Shown here piece by piece: positions 1,859-18,716 of a stretch of DNA of 19,349 nt (positions are counted from its first letter, which is position 1; every line of letters begins with the position of its first letter). Made by a program: the position numbers and the translations under genes. The notes below the pieces were generated by a model. It was not told where the DNA came from, did not search any database, and worked only from the letters and a program-made list of their open reading frames with translations. Origin of the DNA: Bdellovibrionota bacterium (lineage in GTDB: Bacteria > Bdellovibrionota_C > UBA2361 > JBIKUX01); contig JBIKUX010000032.1 in assembly GCA_044347345.1 (NCBI GenBank), forward strand, positions 1 through 19,349, in the 5' to 3' direction.

Positions 1859-2539
1859 TTAATTAAAAATCACCAGACGTTTGAGTAGTTCCTCTGCTTT
1901 TTGCTGCGATAATGATTTTTTTTGAGTAAAAAAGGCAAAACCGATATCTGCTCCTTGAGGAAATTTTTCTTTCTGAAGTAAGGTTGTACTCAATAAGCGA
2001 AGAGTACCAATCATATGCTTATCTTCATTTCTGCCGGTAAAGGTTGCTCCAACTCCTTGAAATTTAGCTAAATTAGGAAGAACAAAAAAAGATACATCAC
2101 GCCCTCTACGAGTATCCCCCTGAGCTGCTAAGAAAGTAAGAACTGTTTGGTTAAATCCAGAGGTAACTGATTTTGTTGTTTTAAAAAGACGCACTGCCGC
2201 AAACATTTTCTCTGGCTCAACGTATAGCTTTGAATCGTTATTTAACTCGTGTGGAGCAATTAACAGAGATAATTTAGCTTCTTCTTCCGGAAAAAAAAGT
2301 TGAACATAGGCACTTCCTTTTGAGCCGTGGTAAGCTTGCGCTTCCCTAATGCCTTGAGGTAAAGGAGCTCCAATGATGGATTCTATCGGTATATATGAGG
2401 CATAATAGGCCGAGCGATAAAGCCAAGATAGAAAAATAATTACCGCAATTGTACTGATAACAAGTGCGCGTACTGTCAGGCTTCCCAAAAATTGCAAATT
2501 GTTGGAGTGTTTCATAGAGACTTGCATTAACTCTTTCAT
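1859..2539 (-). CDS. Hypothetical membrane-anchored protein
   Basis: One hydrophobic N-terminal segment (ALVISTIAVIIFLSWLY). The listed start at 2677 overlaps hisG, so an ATG at 2539 (MKEL) or 2515 (MKHS) is more plausible. No family recognised. Confidence 0.65.
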   Translation of the reverse strand: MKELMQVSMKHSNNLQFLGSLTVRALVISTIAVIIFLSWLYRSAYYASYIPIESIIGAPLPQGIREAQAYHGSKGSAYVQLFFPEEEAKLSLLIAPHELNNDSKLYVEPEKMFAAVRLFKTTKSVTSGFNQTVLTFLAAQGDTRRGRDVSFFVLPNLAKFQGVGATFTGRNEDKHMIGTLRLLSTTLLQKEKFPQGADIGFAFFTQKKSLSQQKAEELLKRLVIFN

Positions 2540-2547: not shown

Positions 2548-2604
2548 TTGAGAGCCTCTTTCTGTCGCAATAGTATTTGACAAAGAGTATATGAGGTCGC
2601 AACC

Positions 2605-2631
2605 TTGCACCATCACTGTATACTAAATTGA
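2605..2631 (+). other. Candidate His leader micro-ORF (M)HHHCILN
   Basis: SD-like GAGGT 2593-2597, 7-nt spacer, then TTG CAC CAT CAC TGT ATA CTA AAT TGA. The stop overlaps the hisG-frame TTG at 2628 (TTGA). Confidence 0.45.
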
Positions 2632-3578
2632 ATCTTAAATTCTTAATTTTTGTGAACGAACGTACTGAATGGCTCACTCTCGCAGTTCAAAAGGCAGGTA
2701 GGCTTAGTGAAGACTCTCTTCAGTTGCTTGCAGAATGTGGCATAGCACTCAACTTATCTGGCAGTAGGTCTGGGAAGCTGCGCGTCCGTGCATCAAACTT
2801 TCCTCTCGAGGTTTTGTTTGTTAGAGATGATGACATTCCAGCTTTAGTTAACGACGGTATTGTTGATGTCGGCATTGTTGGAGCCAATCTTATTGCTGAA
2901 AAAGGTGGTCAATATGCTACCTTACAGCGCTTAGGTTTTTCACAATGTAGGCTTGCTATAGCTGTGCCTAAGGGGTTTGCATATTCCGGAACTTCGTCAT
3001 TAGCGGGTGCGCGCATAGCTACTTCGTATCCTCGATTACTTTCCGAATTTTTAACTTCTAATGGTATTGAGGCTACCATTCACGAGATTAGCGGTTCTGT
3101 AGAAATTGCACCATCTTTGGGGCTTGCTGAGGCAATATGCGATCTTGTTAGTTCAGGCAGTACGTTAATCAGTAACGGATTAGTTGAAGTAGAGACTATC
3201 TTTTATTCAGAAGCGCTTCTCATCGGGCGAACCTCACTCGACTTAATGAGTGCTGAATATGAAGGAGCGTCTCCTCCGGCACTAATAATGATGGAGAAAA
3301 GTGCCTTATTGCGTCGCCTTGTGTTTAGAATTGGCTCTGTACTGAAAGCTCGTGAGCATAAGTATATAGTTCTTAATGCACCTGTAAGCTCACTAGAACA
3401 AATAAAGGCTCTTTTACCCGGAATGAAGAGCCCTACTGTTATACCTCTTGCTGAAGAGGGATGGTGTGCTGTTCATTCTGTTGTTGCGGAGTCTCATTTT
3501 TGGGAAATTATTGAGAGTCTCAAAGAGGCTGGTGCTCAGGGGATTTTAGTAGTCCCAATTGAAAAGATGGTAGGATGA
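2628..3578 (+). CDS. hisG: ATP phosphoribosyltransferase, long form
   Basis: Motifs LAVQKAGRL, VRDDDIP, RIATSYP, ISGSVEIAPSLGLAEAICDLVSSGSTL, plus the C-terminal regulatory domain (LPGMKSPTV...GAQGILVVPIEKM). The start is either TTG 2628 or GTG 2652. Confidence 0.97.
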   Translation: MNLKFLIFVNERTEWLTLAVQKAGRLSEDSLQLLAECGIALNLSGSRSGKLRVRASNFPLEVLFVRDDDIPALVNDGIVDVGIVGANLIAEKGGQYATLQRLGFSQCRLAIAVPKGFAYSGTSSLAGARIATSYPRLLSEFLTSNGIEATIHEISGSVEIAPSLGLAEAICDLVSSGSTLISNGLVEVETIFYSEALLIGRTSLDLMSAEYEGASPPALIMMEKSALLRRLVFRIGSVLKAREHKYIVLNAPVSSLEQIKALLPGMKSPTVIPLAEEGWCAVHSVVAESHFWEIIESLKEAGAQGILVVPIEKMVG

Positions 3579-3607
3579 CCTAACTAAATTAACCGCTGGG
3601 CATTTGT

Positions 3608-5533
3608 ATGCTAATTATAAATCGTTTCCCCTCTCGAGATGAATGGTCGTCTTTAATAAATAGACCTCAAGTTGCTTACGATTCTTTAATTCAAGTAGTT
3701 GATCCTATTTTAAGTGATGTAAGAGCACGGGGCGATGATGCTCTAAGAGACTATACCTTGCGTTTTGATGGAATAGCCCCATTTTCGCTTAGAGTATCTG
3801 ATCAGGAGATCTTGTGTGCTGAAGAAAGCCTTCCTGATGATTTAAAAAAAGCTATCCGTACTGCTGTAGGCACAATAGAAGCCTTTCATGCCGCTCAAAT
3901 GAGTGATGATTGCCAAGGAAAAATTTCTGTTGAGACTATTCCAGGAATATTCTGCCGGCGAGTTTTGCGGCCTATTCAAAAGGTAGGTTTTTATGTTCCG
4001 GGTGGATCTGCTCCTCTTTTTTCTTCAGTCCTAATGATGGCAATTCCTGCAAGATTAGCCAAAGTTCCCAAACGTATACTTTGCTCTCCTCCACAAAAGC
4101 AACGTCAAAAGGTACAAGTTGATGATGATACAACTGGAGTACATCCAGCTATCTTGTATGCCGCACATTTAACGGGCATTAGTGAGATTTATGCTGTTGG
4201 TGGTGCTCAAGCTATCGGTGCCATGGCTTATGGAACAGAAACAATTCCTAAAGTTGATAAAATTTTTGGTCCTGGAAATCAGTATGTAACGGTAGCTAAA
4301 CAGCGAGTGAGTCTTGATTGTGTTGGCATAGACATTCCCGCTGGCCCGTCAGAACTTTTAATTATAGCGGATAGTAATGCTAACCCAAGCTTTATTGCTG
4401 CTGACTTATTATCGCAGGCGGAGCACGGTGGTGATAGTCAAGTAGTTTTGGTGACAACACAAGAAACCCTTATTGCAGCTGTCCAAGGAGAGTTAGCGCG
4501 GCAGCTTGCAAATCTTTCGAGAAAATCAACCGCAGAGATATCACTTGCACATAGCAGAGCTATTTTGGTTAATTCATTAGCAGAGGCCGTTGAATTTTCT
4601 AATTGCTATGCTCCAGAACATTTAATTATAGCGACGGAAAATCCCGCCGAATTAATGGAACAAGTTCACGCAGCGGGTTCAGTTTTTCTCGGTAATTATA
4701 CACCAGAATCACTTGGTGATTACGCTTCTGGAACCAATCATATACTTCCGACCGCTGGTTGGGCTCGTTCTTGGAGCGGTGTATCAGTTTCGTCTTTTTT
4801 AAAAGGTATAACTGTTCAGGAGGCCACTGAGGTTGGTTTATTAAATATTGGACCAGTAGTTGAAACTTTGGCGCAAGCAGAAGGGCTTGATGCTCATGCT
4901 TTAGCGGTGAGTATTAGATATGAAGAGTGCTCAAAATTGCAAATAAATGGCGTGCAACACCGACGTGGTAGCGTTGTTCGTCAAACAGGAGAAACTACGA
5001 TTGCTATCGAAGTTTTGCTTGATGTTGACGGTAAGGCTGTAATTGAGACCGGTATCGGTTTTTTTGACCACATGCTAAATCAGATAGCCAGACATAGTGG
5101 TATAAGAATACATGTAAGGGCTGAGGGTGATCTTAACGTTGATGAGCATCACTTAATTGAGGACGTCGGTATAGCACTTGGTACTGCTTTGCGGCAGGCT
5201 CTAGGGGCAAAGCATGGCATAGCACGGTATGCTTTTTTGGTGCCGTTAGATGAGTCTCTTACTCACATTGCGCTTGACCTTTCTGGCCGGGCTCATCTTG
5301 AGTGGAACGGTAGTTTTTATCGGGATAGTGTAGGTGGTTTCCCTACCGAGATGGTGCGTCATTTTTTCTGGTCTCTTTGTGAAGCTCTTAGATGTTCGCT
5401 TCATATCAGAGTAGAGGGGGAGAATGATCATCATAAAATTGAAACCGTTTTTAAAGCTTTTGGAAGAGTACTTGGAGAAGCAATACGTAAAACCGATCAA
5501 CAAGGAGTCCCGAGTACAAAAGGTATGCTATGA
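3608..5533 (+). CDS. hisD-hisB: Fused histidinol dehydrogenase (about aa 1-440) / imidazoleglycerol-phosphate dehydratase (about aa 452-641)
   Basis: HisD motifs: VGFYVPGGSAPLFSS, GGAQAIGAMAYGT, KIFGPGNQYV, DIPAGPSE, LSQAEHG, APEHL, GDYASGTNHILPT, EGLDAH. IGPD motifs: RQTGET, TGIGFFDHML, DEHHLIED, NDHHKIE, PSTKG. There is no stop between the two domains. Confidence 0.95.
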   Translation: MLIINRFPSRDEWSSLINRPQVAYDSLIQVVDPILSDVRARGDDALRDYTLRFDGIAPFSLRVSDQEILCAEESLPDDLKKAIRTAVGTIEAFHAAQMSDDCQGKISVETIPGIFCRRVLRPIQKVGFYVPGGSAPLFSSVLMMAIPARLAKVPKRILCSPPQKQRQKVQVDDDTTGVHPAILYAAHLTGISEIYAVGGAQAIGAMAYGTETIPKVDKIFGPGNQYVTVAKQRVSLDCVGIDIPAGPSELLIIADSNANPSFIAADLLSQAEHGGDSQVVLVTTQETLIAAVQGELARQLANLSRKSTAEISLAHSRAILVNSLAEAVEFSNCYAPEHLIIATENPAELMEQVHAAGSVFLGNYTPESLGDYASGTNHILPTAGWARSWSGVSVSSFLKGITVQEATEVGLLNIGPVVETLAQAEGLDAHALAVSIRYEECSKLQINGVQHRRGSVVRQTGETTIAIEVLLDVDGKAVIETGIGFFDHMLNQIARHSGIRIHVRAEGDLNVDEHHLIEDVGIALGTALRQALGAKHGIARYAFLVPLDESLTHIALDLSGRAHLEWNGSFYRDSVGGFPTEMVRHFFWSLCEALRCSLHIRVEGENDHHKIETVFKAFGRVLGEAIRKTDQQGVPSTKGML

Positions 5534-6114
5534 AGGTTGTTCTTGTAGAATATAATGCTGGTAATTACAGGTCTGTAATATGTGCTCTAAATCGTCTAGG
5601 AATTTTTCCAGAAGTATCAGCTGATCCCGCGACAATCAGAAGAGCTGATAGAGTAATTTTTCCAGGAGTGGGAGAAGCTAGCACTACTATGCAATATCTT
5701 CATTCCTCAGGTCTTAGTTCGGTAATTGTTAGCCTTACTCAGCCCATTTTAGGCATATGTTTAGGGATGCAGCTTTTGTGTAAAGCTTCAGAGGAAAATG
5801 ATACTGAATGTTTAAATTGTTTTTCTGAGCAAGTCCGTCGATTTCGGCAAATGCGTAAGATTCCTCACATTGGTTGGAATGAAGTGTATAAATTAACTGG
5901 TCCTCTTTTTGAGGGTATACCTGAGGGATCTCACTGTTATTTTGTTCATAGTTACTATGTTTCAGTTGGGGCTCATACTACAGCAGAAACTATCTACGGA
6001 GAGTCGTTTTCTGCAAGTATACAATCCGGTAATCGTTTTGCTGTGCAATTTCATCCAGAAAAAAGTGGAGAAGTTGGAGCCCAGATTCTTAATAATTTTT
6101 TAAGACTCGAGTGA
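5530..6114 (+). CDS. hisH: Imidazole glycerol phosphate synthase glutaminase subunit
   Basis: AGN, FPGVG, GICLGMQ (catalytic Cys), PHIGWN, YFVHSY, QFHPEKS. ATGA overlap with the upstream gene. Confidence 0.97.
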   Translation: MKVVLVEYNAGNYRSVICALNRLGIFPEVSADPATIRRADRVIFPGVGEASTTMQYLHSSGLSSVIVSLTQPILGICLGMQLLCKASEENDTECLNCFSEQVRRFRQMRKIPHIGWNEVYKLTGPLFEGIPEGSHCYFVHSYYVSVGAHTTAETIYGESFSASIQSGNRFAVQFHPEKSGEVGAQILNNFLRLE

Positions 6115-6126
6115 GGTGTTTTCACT

Positions 6127-6864
6127 ATGTTTATTCCAATACCAGCTATTGACCTTATTGAAGGTAAGTGCGTACGCCTTACTAAGGGAGATTATACAAA
6201 ATCTAAGATTTATAATTTCGATCCCGTTGAGTTTGCCCGCGAAGTGGAAGGAGAAGGGCTACCTCGACTTCATGTTGTTGATCTAGATGGTGCTAAGACC
6301 GGTGTAGTAGTAAATTATCGTGTGCTTGAAAAGATTACCAATGAAACTTCTCTCGTAGTGGATTTTGGTGGTGGAGTTAAAAGTGATGACTCTCTTCGTA
6401 TTGCCATGGAGTGTGGTGCCGCGCAGATAGTAATTGGGAGTTTAGCTGTAAAGGAGTCAGCGCTTTTTGAGCATTGGATTGGAGAGCACGGAGCCCACCG
6501 ATTTATCTTGGGTGCTGATGCTCGTCAAGGATTAGTGGCGGTATCTGGTTGGAAGGAGCTTACTGAGATTACTCTTAATGATTTAATCGATGAGTATCAC
6601 AATAAAGGGATATATTACGTTATCTGCACTGATATTGAACGAGACGGAATGTTACAAGGTTCTTCCTTGGATTTGTATAAATCGCTCAGAGAGCGGTTCC
6701 CTGAAGTAAAGCTAATAGCTAGTGGTGGAGTTAGTGCATTGAGTGAACTAGACTCTTTGGCTGATATTGGAGCTTATGGCGCAGTAATTGGCAAAGCTCT
6801 TTACGAAGGATATTTTACTTTAAAGAGTTTGGGAGATTGGCATCAAAAAATACGAGTATCTTAG
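6127..6864 (+). CDS. hisA: ProFAR isomerase
   Basis: [64 protein letters not shown] lies upstream. Confidence 0.97.
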
Positions 6865-6868
6865 ATTC

Positions 6869-7663
6869 ATGCTTACTAAACGTATTATACCCTGTTTAGA
6901 CATTCGTGATGGGCGCACCGTTAAAGGCGTTTATTTTGAGAGTATTCGTGATGCTGGTGATCCAGTTGAGTTGGCAACTAGATACAGTAAAGATGGTGCT
7001 GATGAGCTAGTTTTTCTTGATATTACCGCGACCGTAGAAGCTAGAAAGGCACTTGTGCCACTTGTATCTCGAATTGCTGAAGAGCTTGATATACCGTTTA
7101 CTGTAGGTGGAGGTATATCGTCAGTGGAAGATGTTCGAGCACTCATCCGAGCTGGTGCCGATAAAGTTTCAGTTAATTCAGCGGCCGTAAAACATCCTGA
7201 GTTAATCAATCAATTGGTGAGTGCGTTTGGCAGTCAGTGTATCGTTATTGCTGTAGATGTTAAGTGTATAGGCGGAACTTGGAAGGTTTTTGTGAAAGGC
7301 GGAAGAGAAGAAACTCCTTTTGAGGCTAATGAGTGGATCCAAGAAGCGGTAGGAAGAGGAGCAGGGGAGATCTTATTAACTTCAATGGATCACGACGGTT
7401 CTAAGAATGGATTTGCAATAGATCTTGTACGAAATATCTCTCAGTTAGTTCCTGTTCCAGTAATAGCATCTGGAGGAGCCGGTAGTGTTAGTGATTTTGT
7501 AGAAGTATTTCTTAAGGGTGAGGCTGATGCTGCACTTGCGGCGAGTGTATTTCACTTTGGAGAGCTTTCAATTACGGCTGTTAAGGAAGCTTTATCGAAT
7601 CATAATATTCCGGTAAGAAATATATATAACAGCTCTCTACAAACACGTTCGATTAGCAATTAG
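6869..7663 (+). CDS. hisF: Imidazole glycerol phosphate synthase cyclase subunit
   Basis: [73 protein letters not shown]. Confidence 0.98.
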
Positions 7664-7680
7664 GGGTAGTTTAAATAGTC

Positions 7681-8319
7681 ATGAGAATTTTAACCCCTGA
7701 CAAGATTGCTACTTTAACTTTTGATGATAAGGGTCTTATTCCCGCTATTGTACAGGATTTTACGACTCAACGAGTGTTGATGCTTGGATACATGAATCAT
7801 GAGGCAATTTTACGTACCTTTGATTCAAAACAAGTTACATTTTTTAGTCGATCAAAAGATAGGATATGGACAAAAGGTGAAACTTCCGGGAATTACTTAA
7901 AATTAAATACAATACTTTTTGACTGTGACAATGACGCTCTTTTGATTTTAGCGAATCCTGTAGGAGCAGTTTGTCATACTGGAACTGATACTTGCTTTGA
8001 TCAATCTAATGATCAAGATCCTCTTCTCTTTTTAAGAGAGCTTCGCGCCGTAATAGCTGGCAGGCAAAGTACCGCTCATTTAGAGGAGCAGTCTTACACC
8101 GCATCTCTTTTTAGAAAGGGTACTCCTAAAATAGCTCAAAAAGTAGGAGAAGAGGCAGTTGAGGTAGTTATAGAAGCTTTGCGGAATGATAAAGAGCGAT
8201 TTATTGAGGAGAGTGCTGACCTTATATTCCATCTTATGGTGCTATGTGCGCAGATGGACACGTCTTTTGAGGATATCTCGCGAGTACTCGCAATTCGTAA
8301 TCAACGTTCACGTGATTAG
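7681..8319 (+). CDS. hisIE: Bifunctional phosphoribosyl-AMP cyclohydrolase / phosphoribosyl-ATP pyrophosphatase
   Basis: HisI motifs GLIPAIVQD, VLMLGYMN, SRSK..WTKGETSGN, DCDNDA, CHTG..TCF. HisE motifs SYTASL, KVGEEAVE, ESADLIFH. Confidence 0.97.
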   Translation: MRILTPDKIATLTFDDKGLIPAIVQDFTTQRVLMLGYMNHEAILRTFDSKQVTFFSRSKDRIWTKGETSGNYLKLNTILFDCDNDALLILANPVGAVCHTGTDTCFDQSNDQDPLLFLRELRAVIAGRQSTAHLEEQSYTASLFRKGTPKIAQKVGEEAVEVVIEALRNDKERFIEESADLIFHLMVLCAQMDTSFEDISRVLAIRNQRSRD

Positions 8320-8328
8320 GTATTAGCT

Positions 8329-10269
8329 GTGCGAATTATTCATACTGCTGTAGGCTCTGTGAATCAAATTGTTCTTGATTGGACTGGTAATAGAGAACGT
8401 ATTCTTCGTGTTATTAAGGCTGCTCAAGATGTTAATGTTGATATCTTATGTTTGCCTGAATTAGCGGTTACTGGGTACGGAGCTGAAGATCTTTTTCTTG
8501 CTCCGTTTTTTTTAAAGCGAGCTTGGGAAGAGCTTCATTTAATTTCAAAGGAAGTTTCAGATACTCTTGTTTGCTTAGGTGTACCTGTTTTTTTCTCAGG
8601 AAAAGTTATAAATTGCGCAGCCTTTCTTCATCAAGGAAAAATTGTAGCAATAGTACCAAAGCAGTTTCTTGCTAATGATGGTATTCATTATGAGACGAGA
8701 TGGTTTACCCCTTGGCCTAAAAGAAAAATATTAGAATATCGAGGCATACCGTTAGGAGATCTAGTTTTAGATTGGGGTGGTGTGCGCATAGGTGTTGAAA
8801 TCTGCGAGGATAGTTGGATGGCAAATCGCCCTTCTGGCGGTTTTCCGTCTCGAGGAGTAGATTTAGTATGTCATCTAAATGCTAGCCATTTTTCAATAGG
8901 CAAGCACCCTACTCGACTTGTTTATATGAAGGATATAAGTCGCTCGGCTGGGGTAGCGGTGCTTGCTGCAAATCTACTCGGTAACGAAACTGGGAGAATA
9001 ATATTTGATGGAGACGGAACCATTATTGCTAATGGGGATGTTCTTGTTGAGAGTGATAGATTGTATCTAGGCGAGTGGTCGCTTACGTCTGCTTTTGTAG
9101 ACGTAGATAATCTTCGTCGAAGCAGAATGCAGAAAGCAGGTATTACTTTTGATATTCAAGATGAGCAACTAATTACCCTATCTGCTACTTCTCCTAAAGG
9201 TCTTGGTAGAACTGTACAAACTAATCCAAAAGAAGAATGGGATAAGGGTAGCGATATATCTGTGACTTACTCGGAAGTAACTAGAGCCGTCACTCTTGGC
9301 TTAAATGATTATTTGCGTAAATCTCTTACACAGGGAGTCGTAGTTAGTTTAAGTGGAGGAGTTGATTCTTCTATTACTGTTGCGTGTGCTGTGCTAACAC
9401 TTGCAAGATTGTATTTGCATTCAGAAGCGAGTAAAAATTTTCTTTCTGACGTAGATTTAGCTACAACAATTCGTAATCGCATTGTTGCCGTTTATCAGAG
9501 TACAAGGCAGAGCTCACAACCTACAGAAAATTTCGCTAGGCTATTTGCGCAAGATGTAGGAGTTACCTTTTATAAGTGGTGCCTTGATCCGATAATAGAT
9601 GAATATGAAAACCTGTTATTTGGAGTAACCGGCATAAAACCCTCTTGGGAATCTCATGATTTGTTAAAGCAAAACATTCAGTCTAGAGCTAGATCACCTG
9701 GATCATGGTTACTAAGTAACTTGAATAAATCATTATTGCTTACTACGGGTAATAGGAGTGAGGCTACTGTAGGATATGCTACTATGGATGGTGATACGAG
9801 TGGAGGATTAAATGTAATTGGAGGTCTTAGTAAAACATTTATTAGAGGTTGGGCAACATGGCTTTCAGCCAATAATAATTGGGGCGTTAATCTATCCTCT
9901 CTTGCTAAGATAGCACAGCAAGCACCAACAGCAGAGCTTCGTCCTGCACAATATAATCAAACTGATGAAGGAGATCTTATGTCGTACGATCTCCTAAATC
10001 GTATTGAGAAATGTCTTGTGTATGAGGGTAAAAGCCCCACAGAGACTTATGCAGTCTTAAAAGATGATTTTTTGATAGAAAATCGAGAAAATTTAATTAA
10101 AAACATCTCTCTTATTTATCGTAAGTGGGCTACTAACCAATGGAAGCGTGAGCGTTTAGCCCCTTGTTTTCATTTAGATGATTATAATGTAGATCCAAGA
10201 TCGTGGTGTCGTTTCCCTATACTTTCTGCAGCCTATGAGGAGGAAATAGCGCAGATTGAGAGTATATGA
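8329..10269 (+). CDS. nadE: Glutamine-dependent NAD+ synthetase
   Basis: N-terminal nitrilase-fold domain with an E-K-C triad (LPEL, VPK, EICED). C-terminal synthetase with SLSGGVDS, QNIQSRAR, TGNRSE, GYATMDGD, PTAEL, QTDEGDL, QWKR. GTG start. Confidence 0.95.
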   Translation: MRIIHTAVGSVNQIVLDWTGNRERILRVIKAAQDVNVDILCLPELAVTGYGAEDLFLAPFFLKRAWEELHLISKEVSDTLVCLGVPVFFSGKVINCAAFLHQGKIVAIVPKQFLANDGIHYETRWFTPWPKRKILEYRGIPLGDLVLDWGGVRIGVEICEDSWMANRPSGGFPSRGVDLVCHLNASHFSIGKHPTRLVYMKDISRSAGVAVLAANLLGNETGRIIFDGDGTIIANGDVLVESDRLYLGEWSLTSAFVDVDNLRRSRMQKAGITFDIQDEQLITLSATSPKGLGRTVQTNPKEEWDKGSDISVTYSEVTRAVTLGLNDYLRKSLTQGVVVSLSGGVDSSITVACAVLTLARLYLHSEASKNFLSDVDLATTIRNRIVAVYQSTRQSSQPTENFARLFAQDVGVTFYKWCLDPIIDEYENLLFGVTGIKPSWESHDLLKQNIQSRARSPGSWLLSNLNKSLLLTTGNRSEATVGYATMDGDTSGGLNVIGGLSKTFIRGWATWLSANNNWGVNLSSLAKIAQQAPTAELRPAQYNQTDEGDLMSYDLLNRIEKCLVYEGKSPTETYAVLKDDFLIENRENLIKNISLIYRKWATNQWKRERLAPCFHLDDYNVDPRSWCRFPILSAAYEEEIAQIESI

Positions 10270-10880
10270 ATAAAGCTAATGTTCGAGTAGCGTTATTTGG
10301 CGGTTCTTTTGATCCACCTCATATTGGCCATCTAATGGTCATTTCAGCGCTACTTAATTCAGATCTCGTAGAAGAAGTATGGTTAGTTCCGAGTGGTATC
10401 CGTCCCGATAAGAGCTACTATTCTAGTACGCTTGATAGACTGACTCTTGTATACGCTCTTCTTTTTGAATCAGGAATTCCAGCGGGAAGATTAAGAGTAT
10501 GTGAAGCTGAGATTCAAGGCAAAGTGCCTGGTGTAGGCACTGCTAATTTATTGAGATTTTTAAGAAAGCAATATACTAATAAAAATTTCTTTTTTGTCAT
10601 AGGTAGTGATCTTGTAATGCAATTGCCAAATTGGCTGGATCCTGATTACTTAAGATTAAGTGTACCTTTTCTTACTATTACACGGGGTGATTATCCTTCA
10701 CTCTCATCCGATGTAGACTCAGAAGTAAAAGGCTTTAACTTACACTCAGTGCCTCAGCCCTTTGTTTGTACCATCTCAAGTTCGGAATTACGCACCCTTA
10801 TAAAGAATGGTAAAGTAATTAATGGGTATATTCCTAAATTAGTAGCCGAGGCTATTAAAGCTTTGGGTCTTTATCGCTAA
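10266..10880 (+). CDS. nadD: Nicotinate-nucleotide adenylyltransferase
   Basis: FGGSFDPPHIGH, FVIGSD..LPNW, ISSSELR. ATGA overlap with nadE. Confidence 0.92.
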   Translation: MNKANVRVALFGGSFDPPHIGHLMVISALLNSDLVEEVWLVPSGIRPDKSYYSSTLDRLTLVYALLFESGIPAGRLRVCEAEIQGKVPGVGTANLLRFLRKQYTNKNFFFVIGSDLVMQLPNWLDPDYLRLSVPFLTITRGDYPSLSSDVDSEVKGFNLHSVPQPFVCTISSSELRTLIKNGKVINGYIPKLVAEAIKALGLYR

Positions 10881-11060: not shown

Positions 11061-14000
11061 ATGAATTTGTTTCGATTTTTCTTTGCTGGTCTGATTTCTT
11101 TTATTTTACTTACTAGTGGCGGTCATCAGACTTCAGAAGCCCTGACAGGAGAAAAATTACCCCTGTTTACGGTAAAGATCTTAGATGGAATCAGGGTTTC
11201 ATCAAAGTATGTTCTCAATGGTTCGGTATTACGCGCTAAAACCCCGATTAGCGTGTTGTTAGTTCCTAATTCGTCTGAATATTTAGGTAATTCATTAGTT
11301 ACTGGAGCAAGTGGTCTAATTAAATGCAAAAGTAAAATAGGTAAGATTCAACGATCGCGCTCTTTCCGCTCTACTAGTTCTAGTTTTGTTCTTCGTCCAG
11401 ACGCAGGCTCATGCACGTTGACCGGTGAAGTAACTCTTTCCGACGGACGCAGAGAGGCTATCACAGAAAGCAGCTTTACTAGTGTTTCTTTAAAGAAAAA
11501 AAAGCGACCAGGACAGCTTGATAAAAGAGGTAAGCTAGCTATTTCACTTGTAACCGAAAGTGGTTCGGTTCTTCCATTAAGCTCAATACAAACTATTAAC
11601 AGCCAAAAGCAGTATCCAGCTAACGAAGTCTCTATGGCTGTAGATGCGCAATTTTTCGACACCAAGAGCAGGGGAAAGAGTAGACTCCTCAGAGGTAAGA
11701 AGTTAACTGTAACTGTCATATCGCCACGAGGAATTGTAAGTATAACTGAAGCTGATTCAACTCAAGGATTAGTGAAGCTAGGGTTAAATATACTTTCTGC
11801 CGGTACTTACTTAATTAAGGTCACAGTTAAAGGTAGTAGTGCTTCTCAATTAGGGGAAGTAGCGTTTGTGGTTACACTACCTCCATCTTTGATTGGTCCC
11901 CCATTATTGAATCGCACGATTACTCCTAGACCGTTGCCAACAAGTGGGAGTTCGTCATTCTATAAAGCTTTTGATTTTGGGAGTAGGCAATCTATTACTA
12001 TAGACGGAAAAGTCTGGGAAGGTGTAGGTGATGCTTCTGTAAAAAGTGATTCGTCAATTTCTACAAATGGTATAACAAAATATCTTACTCCTTCAGTAAA
12101 CCTAGATCCGTTTGTGAGCGGACCACTCTTTTCCATGCTTAAAAATTTCTTGTGGAAAGAAGAAGGTGTAAAAGTTACAGTGACCGGATTACCAAATGGT
12201 ATATATGAGATATTTGTTTATACAGTAGAAGATAATGAACCGGCTACCTTTGATCTTTTTTTAAACAACAAAATTGCAAAACGTAACATCGCTTCTGGTT
12301 CAGCTGGATTCTGGCAAAGAATTGGTCCGGTTAGAATTGAAGTAACAAACGGTTTAATTGTTCTAGAAGGAAAAAATGAGCATGTTAACTTAGCAGGTGC
12401 TGAGTTATTTAAAATTGATAGAGTAACAACTCCACAAATAACTCAGACTCCTAAGCCTATAACTCAAACTACTCCGATAGCTGTCCCTCAAATAACTCCA
12501 ACACTAGTATCCATAACTACTCCAACACCTTCAGTGGTTGTATCACCTAGCTTTGCCCCAGTACCGGGATTTACGCTTACTCCATCACTGACAAGCACGC
12601 CAAATAACGGAGATATTATCACTAGTGGATTATTACAAGAATTCAAACTTAAGGAGCGTTTTGCTGTATCCCACTCAGATCAAATAGTGGAACTTGATTT
12701 ATCATCCATTGCTCAAAAATCACTTGCAGCCGCTTTTGTGAGTGGCCAATACAGAGCAGCTTTATTAACTTCACCTGGTGGAGTAGAGATACCATTTCAG
12801 GTAATTGAAGAGGGTAAAAAGCTTGCCATTCGCACTAACCTTGCCTCTGGTGAAGAAAAAAAGTGGCAACTAATGGTAGGTAGAAATCCATCTGTGATGG
12901 CAAGTTCTCCGTTATCTATCTCTGAAACAGCTGATCACATTGAAATAGCTTCTGGATTGACTGCACTAAGATTGCCCAACTTTGCGACTCCTGGAAAAGC
13001 GGTAGGGTATACGTCAGCCAATTCGCCGTCGAAGGCTTTGAGAAATCTACCTCATATTGCACCAAACGAATCATTATTCGCTCTAGCACCGATTCAAGGA
13101 GTGCGTCTAGCGAATGGAATATGGACAGCAAGTGGCTCTAATATGCTTGTAGCTCGTGCTAATAAGTTATTAGAAGCGAGTGTCCGGTTTATAGAAAAGG
13201 GTCCATTACGACTAGTAGCGCAAGTTTCATATAAATTTGAAAAGCCAGTATATGATTATGGCTCAACAATTATTTCAAATGCTGGGTTGGGATATTACTC
13301 ATTTACCGTTAAGGCTGAAGCAGGTCAGCCATCCTTTGTATTTGAGGAGGATACTGACCTTGATATGATTTGGGCATTAAATATGCACGAAGGTTTAAAT
13401 CCAGACCAGGCTCGGTACAGGGCTAATTTGAGTAGTTCAGTAGAGAGAGGTCGAGAGCCTGATGGGAGAAAATATCGTCCTTGGCATGAACGTGCTGGTT
13501 TAGATGCTTTGGTTGATCTTAAGTATCCTGAACAGCCAGATGTACGACCATTTATGGCTGTTTGGAATCCTTGGATTTACGACGCAGGTTGGTACTGGCA
13601 GGCTTTTGATTCAAAGGCAAATTCTTCAGCAAATCTTGTAGGGTTATTTGCCGGTCGGGCTTCACGCGCCTTGGGAGCGCACAACAGCGGAGTGTCTGTA
13701 TTTACTCAAGCAGCGGATCCGAGAAACTTATCAAAAAAAGTATTCGGTTTTGCTGTTGAGAGTTACCGAAGGGGGCATGATGCGCGTATTTTTCCGCGCA
13801 GTCGTTTTCAGTGGGGTCTTTATCTAACAAACCGTGAGCAACTCAAAGCTCCTGAAGAGGTGCAGCCTATTAACAGACAGATGAACATTCACGGAGGATT
13901 GAATTTAAGTAAAATAAATAGATGGGTATTTGACTTTCCTGATCCATCTCAAGGCTACGGTGCTGCATTCATGAGTAGGTCAGCTATGGAAGCTCTTCGT

Positions 14001-17000
14001 AAAAGAGTAAGGGAAGACAATGATTACTATAACTTTCTTGTTCAGAAAGATTCATGGACCCGTCCTATACTTGATTCATGGCGTGAGTCAGGACGCGAAA
14101 AATTAGCGCAATCAGTTCAGTCCGTGGTGAAAGACGCTAAGGAGATGATGGATACTCTCATAAATGGTCAGGGGGTAATGGATTTAAAGCATCATTATTG
14201 GATGGGTGGCCTAATCGCTCAGCGAAATGGTGTATGGCTTGATCAGCTACTTGCGGATTCTCGTCTAACAGATTTAGAGCGGGCTAGTCTAAAAGCTGCA
14301 GCGGTTTTATTTGGTGAAGTAATGTGGGATGAGGATCACTCTCCAATTGGTATTGAGAGTATCGGAGTAAACTTGGGTAATGAAAATATGGCGTTGCAAC
14401 ATTCTGGTTATCGCCAGTTTTACGCGTTATTTTTGGCAAGAAACCCCACCATGTCCCAAAGGGTAAACCAAGTTGAACAAAAAGTGAGAGCTAGCTTAGA
14501 GCAGCAAGTTGATGAGAGTGGGGCTCATATTGGTAGTAGTCACTATATGTCAGCTTCGTTTACACCAACATTGAATATTATTTTACAGTTAGAGCAGCTT
14601 GGAAGATCACCTTTTGCTAACTGGCCGAAGCTTAACAAATTTGCGGAGTATCTATTAAATATTCAGGCACCAAGCGACCCTCGTAGAGATAGAAAGCGCA
14701 CGATATTAACTTTTGGTGATGCTGGAATTGAGGGTTCGGCACTTTATGGACTACTCGGGACTGGGTTTTCAAATGCGAATCCATCACTTTCGCGCCGATT
14801 AATGGCTGCATGGAGAGTCGGAGGCAAAGAGCACTCTGCCTTTTTTGGTTCTAGTTTAATGATGATAGATGACACTCTGAGCAGTGTTGAAGTGCCCCTT
14901 GGTGATGCTTTCTTTGCTGGAAGTATGGGAATATTACGACATGGTTGGAATACAGCTAATGAAACAGCATTGTTTCTTTTAGCCGGAAATCATTACCGTG
15001 ACCACCGACATGAGGGAGATGTAGGTTCTATATCTCTATATGGTCTTGGAGTTCCTTTATCAACAGATTGGGCATCTCTTTATGAGCCGCACGTTCCAGG
15101 CGCTTATCAGCACTCTACTGTTGTGCCTGAAGATGCTATCGGTCACTCATGGGCTCAAAATGGTTCAGCGCTTAATCAAGGAAGTTATATTTGGTCTCAG
15201 TCGAATCAGGAAGACTTTTCATCAAATTCTGGTGGCGCCTTTGTGCGAGCAAAAATGAAGAGAGCCAATTCTAAGCTTGATTGGACTCGGACAGCGACTG
15301 TTGTGAGATTAGCTGAAGATTTGCCTGTAATTGTAATTCAAGATCGATTTAGTGGTGAGCAATCTAGAGTGCCGAAGGTAGCAAGTTTTAACTTAATGGC
15401 ACAAGGTTCAGTAATGACCTCTGGTGGCATGATTACACCACCGCAACATACCCATCCTAAAGCTCAGCGGGAAGAGTCACCACCTGCATCGCATCTTCCT
15501 TCGTCATCTTTACCGATAAGCTTCTCTGCTGGAGCAAACGAATTTGGGTTCACAGGACGACATGGGGTTGATTTCTCAGTATTTGTAATAGGAGATGAGC
15601 CTCACGATGTAGCTATAGGTAATTGGGGTGTAACGGCTTGGGGAAATGGTTTAACGCCAAATAAAGAAGAAAGACAACATATTTTACGAGTGAAGTCTAA
15701 TGGCACATTTAATACGGTATTAGTTCCCTGGAGAGCAGGTAACAAGCCCTCTGGACTTTCGGTAACAAAAGATGGAAGCAATATTAAAATTGTGGCATCT
15801 GGCAAATTAACTATAGTAGCTCCAGACGGCTCATGGCAAACAAACTCTATGTCGCAACAAACACAAACACCTTTAGCTGTTACAGTTAGTGTGCCATCTC
15901 CTACGGCCACGCCGACTTTATCTACCACGGCGACTTTATCTCCTACGGCGACAGCTTTTTTTACTCCAACTGTCAATTCCACTCCTACTTTTACACCGAT
16001 TCAAATACCTTCTTTTATACCTACGGCTATAGTTATTCCTACTGCTACTCCGGTACTTGAGTCAACTGCAACTATAAATGCAACTGTAACTGTAACCGCA
16101 ACCGCAGCTATTATTCCAACTGTTACTTTTACTCCAACTATGACTCCAATAGTTATAGCTAGTCCTACGCCAACAGCAGTAGTTTCTCCTACGCTTGCAC
16201 CAACCTCTATTCCTACACCTTCTTTGGTATCACAAGTGCATTTTTCTTCTAGTTATACTTTTACAGGAGGAAGTGTAGGAGTAGGGTTAGCTACGGGTGA
16301 CTTTGATGGAGATGGGAATCTTGATGCTGCTACAACGAATAACGGGCCTGTAAGACTTTGGTGGGGTAATGGGGACGGAACTTTTGCGCAAGGAGATACT
16401 ATCTCAAAGCATGGTATTAATTTTAGCCATCTAGGATCGGGAGATTTTAATGAGGACGGGAGAGTTGATTTAGTTTTTGGTTCAATTCAGGGAGAATTAA
16501 ACATTGCCTTAAACCAAGGAGGAGGAGCTTTTCAAGCACCAGTAACTATACCAATTTACTTACCAGGTAACACCAAGCCGTTAGTAAATGATTTTGATGG
16601 AGACGGCAATCTTGATATTTTAGCTGGTGGAAATGGTAGAGCGCAGATTTTATATGGCGACGGTGGTGGAGCATTTACAAGTGCGACCTTTTTAACGTGG
16701 GGCAGTAATATTGTCATCCCTGCTGTGGGAGATATTAACAGTGACGGAGAGAATGATATTATACTCACAGATATAGAGTGGGGTGGCGGTGCGGCAATAT
16801 TTACAAAAGTTGGTGCTAGAAGTTATGAGTTCTCCGGAACCATATCAGAACCTGGCAATGTATATGCATCAGCTTTAGCTGATTTTAATAAGGATGGAAA
16901 TCTTGACCGAGTATCTATTCGTGATCAGGAATCAAATGGTCTTGCTGGGATTTCATTTGGAAACGGAACTATAATTCTAAGCCCATTGTCATCTATTAAC

Positions 17001-18608
17001 TTGACTAATGTACCGGGGGGGCCAAATAGAGAGCTTTTAGCGCATGATTTTAATGGTGATGGAAATATTGATATTTTAGCTGCGTCTCGTCCTCCTCCTT
17101 ATGATGCGGGCTCTTTATTTTTATCCACCAATAATGGAGACGGCACATTTAAGTCTCCGGTTACAGTGGGCCCATCCAGTCATCTTGATTACGGCCTTGC
17201 ACTTGGCGATATAAATAATGACGGAATAGTTGATATTATAACTTCAGTAGGAGCGATAATTGTATCGCGAACTGGTTTAACTCCAACGCCTGAGTCAACG
17301 CTAACGCTAACACCAACTCCTACTGCAACAGCGACGTTGACACCAACGCCTGAGTCAACGCTAACGCTAACACCAACTCCTACTGCAACACCGACATTGA
17401 CACCAACGCCTGAGCCAACTGCAACTGTAACTGCAACACCAACGGCAACTTTTCCGCCAATCCCAACTCCAACTCCAACTGCAACTGCAACTGCAACTGC
17501 AACTGCAACACCAACGGCAACTTTTCCGCCAATCCCAACATTAACTCCAACTCCAGTGGTTACTCAGTCCGTTCAATTTACATCGAGTGCTGTTTTTGCA
17601 GGAGGTGGCACAGGTATTGGGGTAGCTACTGCTGATTTTAATGAAGACGGTAAACTTGATGCTGTAACAACAGGTCATAGTCGAGGCACATTATGGCTAG
17701 GGAACGGGGACGGCACTTTCGTGCAAGGTGCTCGTATCCCGGCTGAACATTCTGGCTTTGGTTATGGATTAATTGGTTCAGGAGATTTTAATGAGGACGG
17801 AGCTCCAGATCTTGTTATGAGTGAACTAAATGGCCAATTACATATAGCATTAAATCAAGGTGCCGGAATTTTTCCTCAAAATCTTGTACCGATACCTGAG
17901 TTGGCGGTAGTTGTAAATCAGCAGACTCGTCCTGTTGTAGAAGATTTCGACAAGGATGGGCACTTAGATATAGCGGTGGGAGGTCGCACTGGTAACGCTC
18001 AGATATTTTACGGAGAGGGTAATGGATTATTTTTAAATTCAATCATCTTAACATGGGGTGATCATATTCATGACTTGGCCGTAGGAGATATCAACAACGA
18101 CGGGCAAAGAGATATAATTTTAACAGATGTAAATTATAATGCTGGAGCGAGGCAATTTATAAAAACTGGAGCAAGGACTTATCAGATTGGTAATTACATC
18201 GGTGAAGGTGGTAATCGCTACGTGACTACTCTTTCGGATTTGAATAAAGATGGTAATCTTGATCGCGTATCCATTTTAGATCAGACGGTCAATGGAATTG
18301 CTGGCATATCCTTTGGTGATGGTTTAGTGATACCTAATCCTTCTGTTTACAATAATTTTACGATTAGCGGGTCATCATATTATAGAGAAATAGCCACAAG
18401 AGATTTCAATGGTGATAGCAATATTGACATATTAACTCTTGGTAATAACAACTTTTTTCTTTCTCTTGGTCGAGGAGATGGTACATTTAATCCTCCTGTA
18501 TTAGTAGGGCCAGGGGGTGGGGCTGGACTGTCTCTTGCTGATGTTAATAAAGATGGAATAACAGATATCGTATCTTCTGTTGGAGTGCTGATAGCTTCTA
18601 TCAATTAA
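11061..18608 (+). CDS. Giant secreted multidomain protein: putative carbohydrate-binding module, heparinase II/III-like lyase core, Pro/Thr linkers, two FG-GAP/VCBS propellers
   Basis: Sec-type signal [19 protein letters not shown]...SEA. Beta-sandwich-like module at about 11958-12416. P/T-rich linkers at about 12424-12603, 15860-16225 and 17271-17560. Motif [22 protein letters not shown]...HSTV at 15003-15122. Fourteen D-[FILV]-[DN]-x-D-[GS]-x-x-D motifs in two blocks of seven. Confidence 0.85.
16233..17267 (+). repeat. FG-GAP/VCBS propeller copy 1 (7 Ca-binding blade motifs)
   Basis: [63 protein letters not shown]. Confidence 0.9.
17281..17539 (+). repeat. Nested in-frame tandem repeats encoding a Pro/Thr/Ala linker
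   Basis: 60-bp unit at 17281-17340 and 17341-17400 (57/60 identical) plus a partial third copy. Exact 39-bp repeat at 17429-17467 and 17501-17539. (AACTCC)2(AACTGC)5 at 17465-17506. Confidence 0.92.
17568..18605 (+). repeat. FG-GAP/VCBS propeller copy 2 (7 blade motifs), paralogous to copy 1
   Basis: [63 protein letters not shown]. Colinear with copy 1 (e.g. [27 protein letters not shown]). Confidence 0.9.
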
Positions 18609-18640
18609 TACAGCTATTAAAATTAATACAACTATTAATT
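18603..18640. repeat. Tandem 18-bp duplication of a palindromic AT-rich unit
   Basis: AATTAATACAGCTATTAA (18603-18620) and AATTAATACAACTATTAA (18621-18638) are 17/18 identical. 18621-18640 is a perfect 8-bp inverted repeat with a 4-nt loop. Confidence 0.85.
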
Positions 18641-18716
18641 GGCGCCCTCGGCACGGCTCGAACGTGCGACCCCAAGTTTAGGAAACTTGTGCTCTATCCT
18701 ACTGAGCTACGAGGGC
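18640..18716 (-). tRNA. tRNA-Arg (anticodon CCT), 77 nt, encoded CCA
   Basis: Reverse complement folds as acceptor GCCCTCG/CGAGGGC + GCCA, D-arm GCTC-AGTAGGATA-GAGC, anticodon arm CAAGT-TTCCTAA-ACTTG, T-arm GCACG-TTCGAGC-CGTGC. Confidence 0.97.

Follow-up and report, generated by a model that had tools for sequence, protein, structure and literature searches.

Sensing of charged tRNA by a leader peptide is textbook regulation that is generally believed to depend on an RNA switch, either a terminator/antiterminator or a helix that sequesters the ribosome-binding site (RBS). The his operon described here raises the question of whether such a sensor could work with no switch at all, as a nine-codon open reading frame (micro-ORF) with three consecutive histidine codons lies directly before its first gene. 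We analysed this locus in a stretch of DNA of 19,349 nucleotides (the window). Our preferred answer, to which we give a probability of about 0.4, is that the micro-ORF is a minimal hisL-like leader that acts via ribosome occupancy, without transcription termination. The most similar hisG genes are preceded by His-rich leader ORFs, and as part of this reading we propose that the micro-ORF is an analogue of these or descends from them in reduced form.

The his operon and the start of hisG

The operon lies on the + strand and runs in the order hisG, a fused hisD-imidazoleglycerol-phosphate dehydratase gene (3608..5533), hisH (starting at 5530), hisA (6127), hisF (6869), hisIE (7681), nadE (8329) and nadD (10266). 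The hisG gene (2652..3578) has a GTG start and no Shine-Dalgarno (SD) sequence, and its matches to the family profiles TIGR00070 (1.8e-54) and TIGR03455 (1.8e-31) identify the product as a long-form ATP phosphoribosyltransferase with a C-terminal regulatory domain. ATGA stop/start overlaps, which the initial annotation had reported from later in the operon, are present at 5530-5533 (genes 3608..5533 and 5530..6114) and at 10266-10269 (genes 8329..10269 and 10266..10880). The fused gene (3608-5533) combines histidinol dehydrogenase and imidazoleglycerol-phosphate dehydratase in one 641-aa protein; the same two-domain fusion, at 616-646 aa, occurs in 18 other database proteins among the matches listed, and four further listed proteins of 989-1080 aa carry it together with an aminotransferase domain. 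The operon as seen (2652-10880) contains no hisC and no histidinol-phosphatase gene, and continues into nadE and nadD. GC content is 36-46%, HisG and HisD are closest to Bacteroidota proteins (about 60%), and the source lineage looks poorly sampled.

Upstream, a divergent gene on the - strand (1859..2515) encodes a 218-aa protein with one N-terminal membrane-helix-like stretch and no family, and it bounds an intergenic region of 136 nt (2516-2651). Among 5.8 billion proteins this product has just two relatives, at 81% (P0242) and 43%; relatives of 219 and 200 aa share its start position. By protein language-model similarity, its nearest clusters are most frequent in Melainabacteria/Cyanobacteriota (score 0.95), which is no more than a lead, and the 167-aa ORF gave no useful taxonomic signal. 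The open frame on the minus strand extends from 2677 to 1859, and a search with the 272-aa extended form returned three proteins (218, 219 and 200 aa), none of them extended. An exact 14-nt direct repeat, TTTCATAGAGACTT, at 2510-2523 and 2534-2547 (spacing 24 nt) copies the ATG start context of the divergent gene, giving in-frame starts at 2515 and 2539. The flanking ORFs 2-376, 524-1111, 1299-1802 and 1859-2515(-) match no NCBIfam or Pfam family. At the other end of the window, a 2,515-aa protein (11061-18608) carries at least ten FG-GAP-like repeats (PF13517, 2.1e-66), and its gene is followed by a tRNA-Arg(CCT) on the minus strand (18640-18716).

The distance between the micro-ORF and hisG depends on where hisG begins. 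The stop of the micro-ORF, TGA at 2629-2631, does overlap a hisG-frame TTG at 2628..2630 (+ strand), and the initial annotation had read this TTGA as a 4-nt coupling of the same geometry as the ATGA overlaps. Protein comparison points instead to GTG 2652 as the most likely start, and the TTG is probably not used as one. The database gene call for the HisG of the window (P0001) has 308 aa from GTG 2652; a 92% relative (P0002) begins VNERTEW, and so also has a GTG start; and a 79% relative (P0003) begins MNTNQAEW, with BLASTP against the TTG-start form aligning only from its residue 10. These two relatives, both from metagenome contigs, were compared as proteins. The eight extra N-terminal residues of the TTG-start form are therefore without counterpart in relatives, the overlap at 2628 is probably functionless, and the micro-ORF stop would lie 20 nt upstream of the hisG start.

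As first described, neither hisG start has an SD (anti-SD duplex energies of +0.9 kcal/mol for TTG 2628 and +1.7 kcal/mol for GTG 2652). This had been taken as a sign of coupling, an argument that loses its force in the window, where, of 13 other gene starts that we examined, just 2 have a GGAG/GAGG/AGGA core and the absence of an SD is thus normal. The notable feature is the SD of the micro-ORF, and not the lack of one at hisG.

The histidine-codon ORF and its RNA context

Every element of the micro-ORF in the initial annotation is present in the sequence. On the + strand, an SD-like GAGGT (2593..2597; anti-SD duplex energy -6.3 kcal/mol) stands 7 nt before TTG 2605, the first codon of TTG-CAC-CAT-CAC-TGT-ATA-CTA-AAT-TGA (2605..2631). 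These nine codons would give the peptide L(M)HHHCILN, and the three consecutive histidine codons CAC CAT CAC occupy codons 2-4 (2608..2616). TTG 2605 is the sole in-frame start, with an upstream in-frame stop at 2578-2580. Between the stop codon and the hisG GTG there remains an A/U-rich spacer of 20 nt (2632..2651), too short to hold a terminator/antiterminator, and 2300-2900 contains no terminator-like site, in agreement with the first description. The weak AU hairpin reported at about 2625-2649 appears in the predicted fold as pairing of 2625-2631 with 2643-2649. Overlapping the micro-ORF, one nucleotide out of the His frame, is an ATG-started ORF, MRSQPCTITVY and stop, at 2591-2626; a single-base indel would join the two into an ATG-started 13-residue His leader. 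We rejected ATG 2591 as a leader start, as it opens MRSQPCTITVY in the other frame and nothing supports a joining indel or an assembly error.

The micro-ORF resembles hisL of E. coli and Salmonella (RF00514) in being a short ORF with consecutive His codons and its own RBS, upstream of hisG on the same strand. It differs in having three His codons, starting at codon 2, against the seven of hisL, in its TTG start, in the absence of a terminator/antiterminator, in the 20 nt to hisG and in the lack of an Rfam match. Leader peptides seldom begin with TTG, and stalling as early as codon 2 is uncommon for them too. Neither a T-box nor His_leader (RF00514) nor any other Rfam family matched at the gathering threshold, and in 2450-2760 no Rfam family matched even at E up to 10. 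A classical attenuation mechanism in the window is excluded by this anatomy.

Whether the micro-ORF is part of the hisG transcript bears on any role it may have. The sole promoter-like site in 2300-2900, where shuffled sequences average 1.2 such sites, is a candidate sigma-70-like promoter on the + strand, TTGAGA-17 nt-TAGTAT (2548..2576; 9/12 matches). On this weak evidence, RNA might start near 2583, about 10 nt before the SD of the micro-ORF, and so would include the ORF. Two other hexamers, TTGACA (2577-2582) and TATACT (2619-2624), had been flagged as possible promoter elements that could place the transcription start within or beyond the micro-ORF; both are present, but at a spacing of 36 nt they do not form one promoter. 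The hexamers 16-18 nt after TTGACA (GCAACC, CAACCT, AACCTT) match TATAAT poorly.

A local RNA hairpin is predicted at 2586..2624 (+ strand), enclosing the SD, the TTG and all three His codons of the micro-ORF. Its energy is -11.4 kcal/mol (z = -2.93, with 3 of 200 shuffles as stable), a significance inflated by the post hoc choice of region. In an RNA starting near 2583 this hairpin would sit at the extreme 5' end. Its stem recurs when the whole leader is folded, although the stability of such whole-leader folds does not exceed that of shuffled sequences (z = +1.22 and -0.40), and the predicted folds contain no stable alternative helices downstream of the micro-ORF of the kind needed for antiterminator-type pairing. 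The hisG initiation region (2634-2664) has an opening energy of 4.39 kcal/mol, the lowest of 11 starts, the other ten needing 6.3-14.6 kcal/mol. Placing a modelled ribosome stalled on the His codons gives 4.17-4.32 kcal/mol, a shift of at most 0.2 kcal/mol, and the sole candidate sequestor helix (2617-2658) is worth about -3 kcal/mol. These opening energies, and the absence of a duplex hiding the hisG start, led us to reject an RBS-sequestor model; with it falls the suggestion in the initial annotation of translation-level control, as far as this would work through RNA structure.

This sets the locus apart from the known leaders that work without a terminator. Poly-Cys short ORFs of mycobacteria control downstream translation in this way, a stalled ribosome blocking the duplex that would hide the RBS of the next gene (10.1101/834739). 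Like the ermC/cat-type leaders, they share with the micro-ORF a codon run in a short upstream ORF and the lack of a terminator, and their output is translation of the next gene; unlike it, both types need an RBS-hiding duplex opened by the stalled ribosome, and none is predicted in the window. The mycobacterial ORFs are also leaderless, whereas the micro-ORF has an SD. Attenuators with an RBS sequestor in place of a terminator are known (PMC9413887), a Leu codon run pairs with the SD in Actinobacteria (PMC1262725) and the his genes of Corynebacterium come under translation-level RNA control by another route (PMC3896937).

Leaders before related hisG genes

Related loci show what usually precedes a hisG gene of this type. 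We compared 14 hisG loci (L001-L014) from genome contigs, mostly of Parabacteroides/Tannerellaceae, with 46-56% HisG identity; none is from the window's own lineage, the best HisG match being 56%. In 11 of the 14, an ORF with 3-6 consecutive His codons lies within 600 nt upstream of hisG. L004 provides a twelfth leader, with the peptide MMGNLAVHVHHTGFRW and a terminator. In L002 neither the ORF search nor the covariance model R1 (below) found a His leader, and L009, with 111 nt of upstream sequence only, is not assessable, so that a classical His-rich leader stands before hisG in 12 of 13 assessable loci. His runs are concentrated there: 11 occur in 4,011 nt upstream of hisG, compared with 20 in the remaining 174,901 nt of these loci. 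The motif HHHC, present in the micro-ORF, is found in 6 of 11 leader peptides of the relatives, for example MITTVTLHLHHHCDGQ. The initial reading of a leader is supported in so far as the most similar hisG genes fetched are preceded by His leader peptides, some with no more than three His codons. A comparative study of 2004 reportedly predicted attenuators in Bacteroidetes/Chlorobi. His leader peptides that carry between three and five His codons are described in print (PMC9413887), as are leader peptides outside Proteobacteria (PMC2965389).

The relatives' leaders are attenuators of the familiar kind. Nine from Tannerellaceae (L005-L008, L010-L014) align with 71% mean column identity and have in common a conserved hairpin spanning the leader stop and a GC-rich terminator of 12 pairs; as we read the alignment, pairing is also possible between the first hairpin's 3' arm and the terminator's 5' arm, following the classical three-hairpin logic. 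R1, a covariance model of sequence and structure built from these nine, matches just upstream of hisG in L004 (38.5 bits), L003 (24.7) and L001 (22.2). In the window R1 finds nothing at 2500-2660, and its best match, elsewhere, scores 8.9 bits. The relatives' leaders match no Rfam 15 family at gathering score. The attenuator lies about 60-240 nt upstream of hisG in the nine Tannerellaceae loci, and R1 detects it across that family as well as in one MAG of Saprospiraceae, in another labelled Competibacteraceae and in one further MAG. L008 also carries a match to the Bacteroidetes FopS small RNA (RF04319, 76.1 bits) at 2625-2698, some 130 nt ahead of its his leader ORF.

Set beside these attenuators (L001, L003-L008, L010-L014), the window shares a run within their range of 3-6 His codons, HHHC as in many of them, and a Bacteroidota-like long-form hisG behind, and lacks the rest: the hairpin over the leader stop, the antiterminator and the 12-bp GC-rich terminator. 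A strong GC-rich hairpin and T run follow all 12 leaders in the relatives, where 62-177 nt separate the leader stop from the HisG match, against 20 nt to GTG 2652 in the window. The relatives have 4-14 codons ahead of the His run and the window has none.

Such a pattern invites the explanation that we consider somewhat unlikely yet the strongest rival, namely that the micro-ORF is the relic of an inherited classical attenuator which has lost its terminator/antiterminator segment, leaving a His ORF with no histidine-specific role or one that just loads ribosomes for re-initiation at GTG 2652. The universal terminator in the relatives' leaders and the bare 20-nt spacer here fit that history, as does the shared HHHC, and the stretch 2630-2651, a GAAT-CTTAA-ATTC mini-hairpin followed by TTAATTTTT, is laid out like a decayed terminator. 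Feedback control could then be carried by the regulatory domain of the long-form HisG alone. Decay should, however, quickly cost a leader its SD, its start and its frame, all of which are intact; beyond HHHC there is no similarity to the relatives' leaders, to which the silence of R1 at 2500-2660 also speaks; and with no codons ahead of the His run, a simple truncation would in addition have had to produce a new SD and start.

The re-initiation component has its own parallel. Re-initiation leader genes (PMC4833913) are short unannotated ORFs ending a few nucleotides before an SD-less structural gene, a description that suits the micro-ORF, and leader genes near a structural gene are proposed there to boost its translation by re-initiation. 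In the same paper, distances peak at 10-14 bp in most phyla, with a ribosome cover of about 12 nt downstream of the translated codon given as the limit, compared with the gap of 20 nt in the window. Re-initiation would moreover make hisG translation fall in histidine starvation, the opposite of biosynthetic feedback.

Chance, termination and ribosome occupancy

It is also conceivable, if unlikely, that His codons, TTG and GAGGT are untranslated and come together by coincidence, in promoter or spacer DNA or in a 5' stem-loop (2586-2624); hisG mRNA may then start at or after about 2631, with TATACT as its -10, or start upstream with no use made of the ORF. TATACT (2619-2624) is a fair -10 hexamer, but the -35 positions available to it (GTCGCA and neighbours) are poor and the promoter scan did not return it. 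The hairpin (z = -2.93) might alone be enough to constrain the sequence; SDs are so rarely used in the window that an SD-like motif may mean little; and no structure ties the micro-ORF to hisG. Against this stand the rule that His leaders precede related hisG genes and the statistics of the run itself. Each strand of the 19,349 nt contains a single CAY-CAY-CAY, the one on the + strand being that at 2608, where base composition predicts 0.31 per strand. Among 20,000 first-order Markov sequences of 136 nt, the length of the gap before hisG, 0.11% contain such a run and 0.03% contain it with an in-frame ATG, GTG or TTG. Of the window's 1,785 start-like triplets, 7.3% are preceded by an SD as good as that of the micro-ORF (-6.3 kcal/mol), and the joint chance of the His run with start and SD comes to roughly 0.0003 x 0.07. 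Little look-elsewhere penalty applies, since there is a single amino-acid operon in the window and its product is the amino acid that the codons specify. The His run of the micro-ORF is thus beyond chance and coincidence is unlikely; the initial identification of a His-codon leader immediately ahead of the operon's first gene is upheld, and this leader is well formed and statistically improbable.

Hidden transcription attenuation, in which ribosome position on the micro-ORF decides read-through into hisG at a Rho-dependent or missed terminator, is highly improbable: ribosome-controlled Rho termination is known for the leader peptides tnaC and mgtL, and the 78 nt at 2598-2675 have the best C/G ratio here, 1.5 (94th percentile of the window), but with C at just 17/78 and a ratio below 1 from 2628 on the excess of C over G is not marked, a ribosome on codons 2-4 could not cover a rut site in so short a leader, and neither an intrinsic terminator in 2300-2900 nor an Rfam match at E up to 10 was found. 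The Rho link offered in the initial annotation has little support.

What survives of the initial interpretation is the His-codon leader and the absent terminator, and not the TTGA coupling, the SD argument, structural control or Rho. The occupancy reading runs as follows. Transcription would begin near 2583, and ribosomes would load at GAGGT/TTG, whose sequence places it among the few good SD sites in the window. With charged tRNA-His plentiful, ribosomes would translate the nine codons and terminate at 2629-2631, where the footprint of the terminating ribosome would reach the SD-less, unstructured landing zone of hisG (GTG 2652) and compete with initiation. With charged tRNA-His scarce, a ribosome would stall on codons 2-4, covering roughly 2591-2626; it would block further loading on the micro-ORF and leave the hisG start free, and it may also shield the 5' end of the mRNA, so that hisG and the coupled downstream genes would then be made in greater amount. 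Occlusion and 5'-protection, which are argued by analogy, would both have the right regulatory sign, the idea of 5'-protection going back to work that reportedly found stabilisation of ermC mRNA. The open hisG start (4.4 kcal/mol) is compatible with initiation independent of an SD, which ribosomes passing 20 nt upstream could disturb.

In favour of the occupancy reading are the His triple, unique on the + strand, its SD, the His leaders of the relatives and the promoter-like site just before the SD. Weighing on the other side, no structure connects the His codons with the hisG start, the SD and start of the micro-ORF lie inside a hairpin of -11.4 kcal/mol, a single sequence stands behind the reading, and the promoter call is no better than chance (1 found, 1.2 expected). 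Termination 20 nt before a start could equally feed re-initiation, with the wrong regulatory sign, by the mechanism put forward for leader genes (PMC4833913).

The part of the literature that we covered yielded no His-codon ORF before hisG that has neither terminator nor sequestor. If real, a leader with neither of these and with its regulatory codons directly after the start would be new. That the micro-ORF represents a minimal class of sensor, an SD-driven nine-codon ORF with His codons right after its start, no terminator and no RBS-sequestering helix, tuning an SD-less gene 20 nt downstream by ribosome position alone in an unsampled lineage that rarely uses SDs, is a more general proposition that we regard as doubtful.

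Should the occupancy reading be true, ribosome occupancy alone would suffice as a sensor, with no RNA switch, and the search space for such sensors would widen to unannotated short ORFs before biosynthetic genes in SD-poor lineages. Should the micro-ORF be a relic, it would be an example of the decay of an attenuator after a Bacteroidota-type operon has settled in another lineage.
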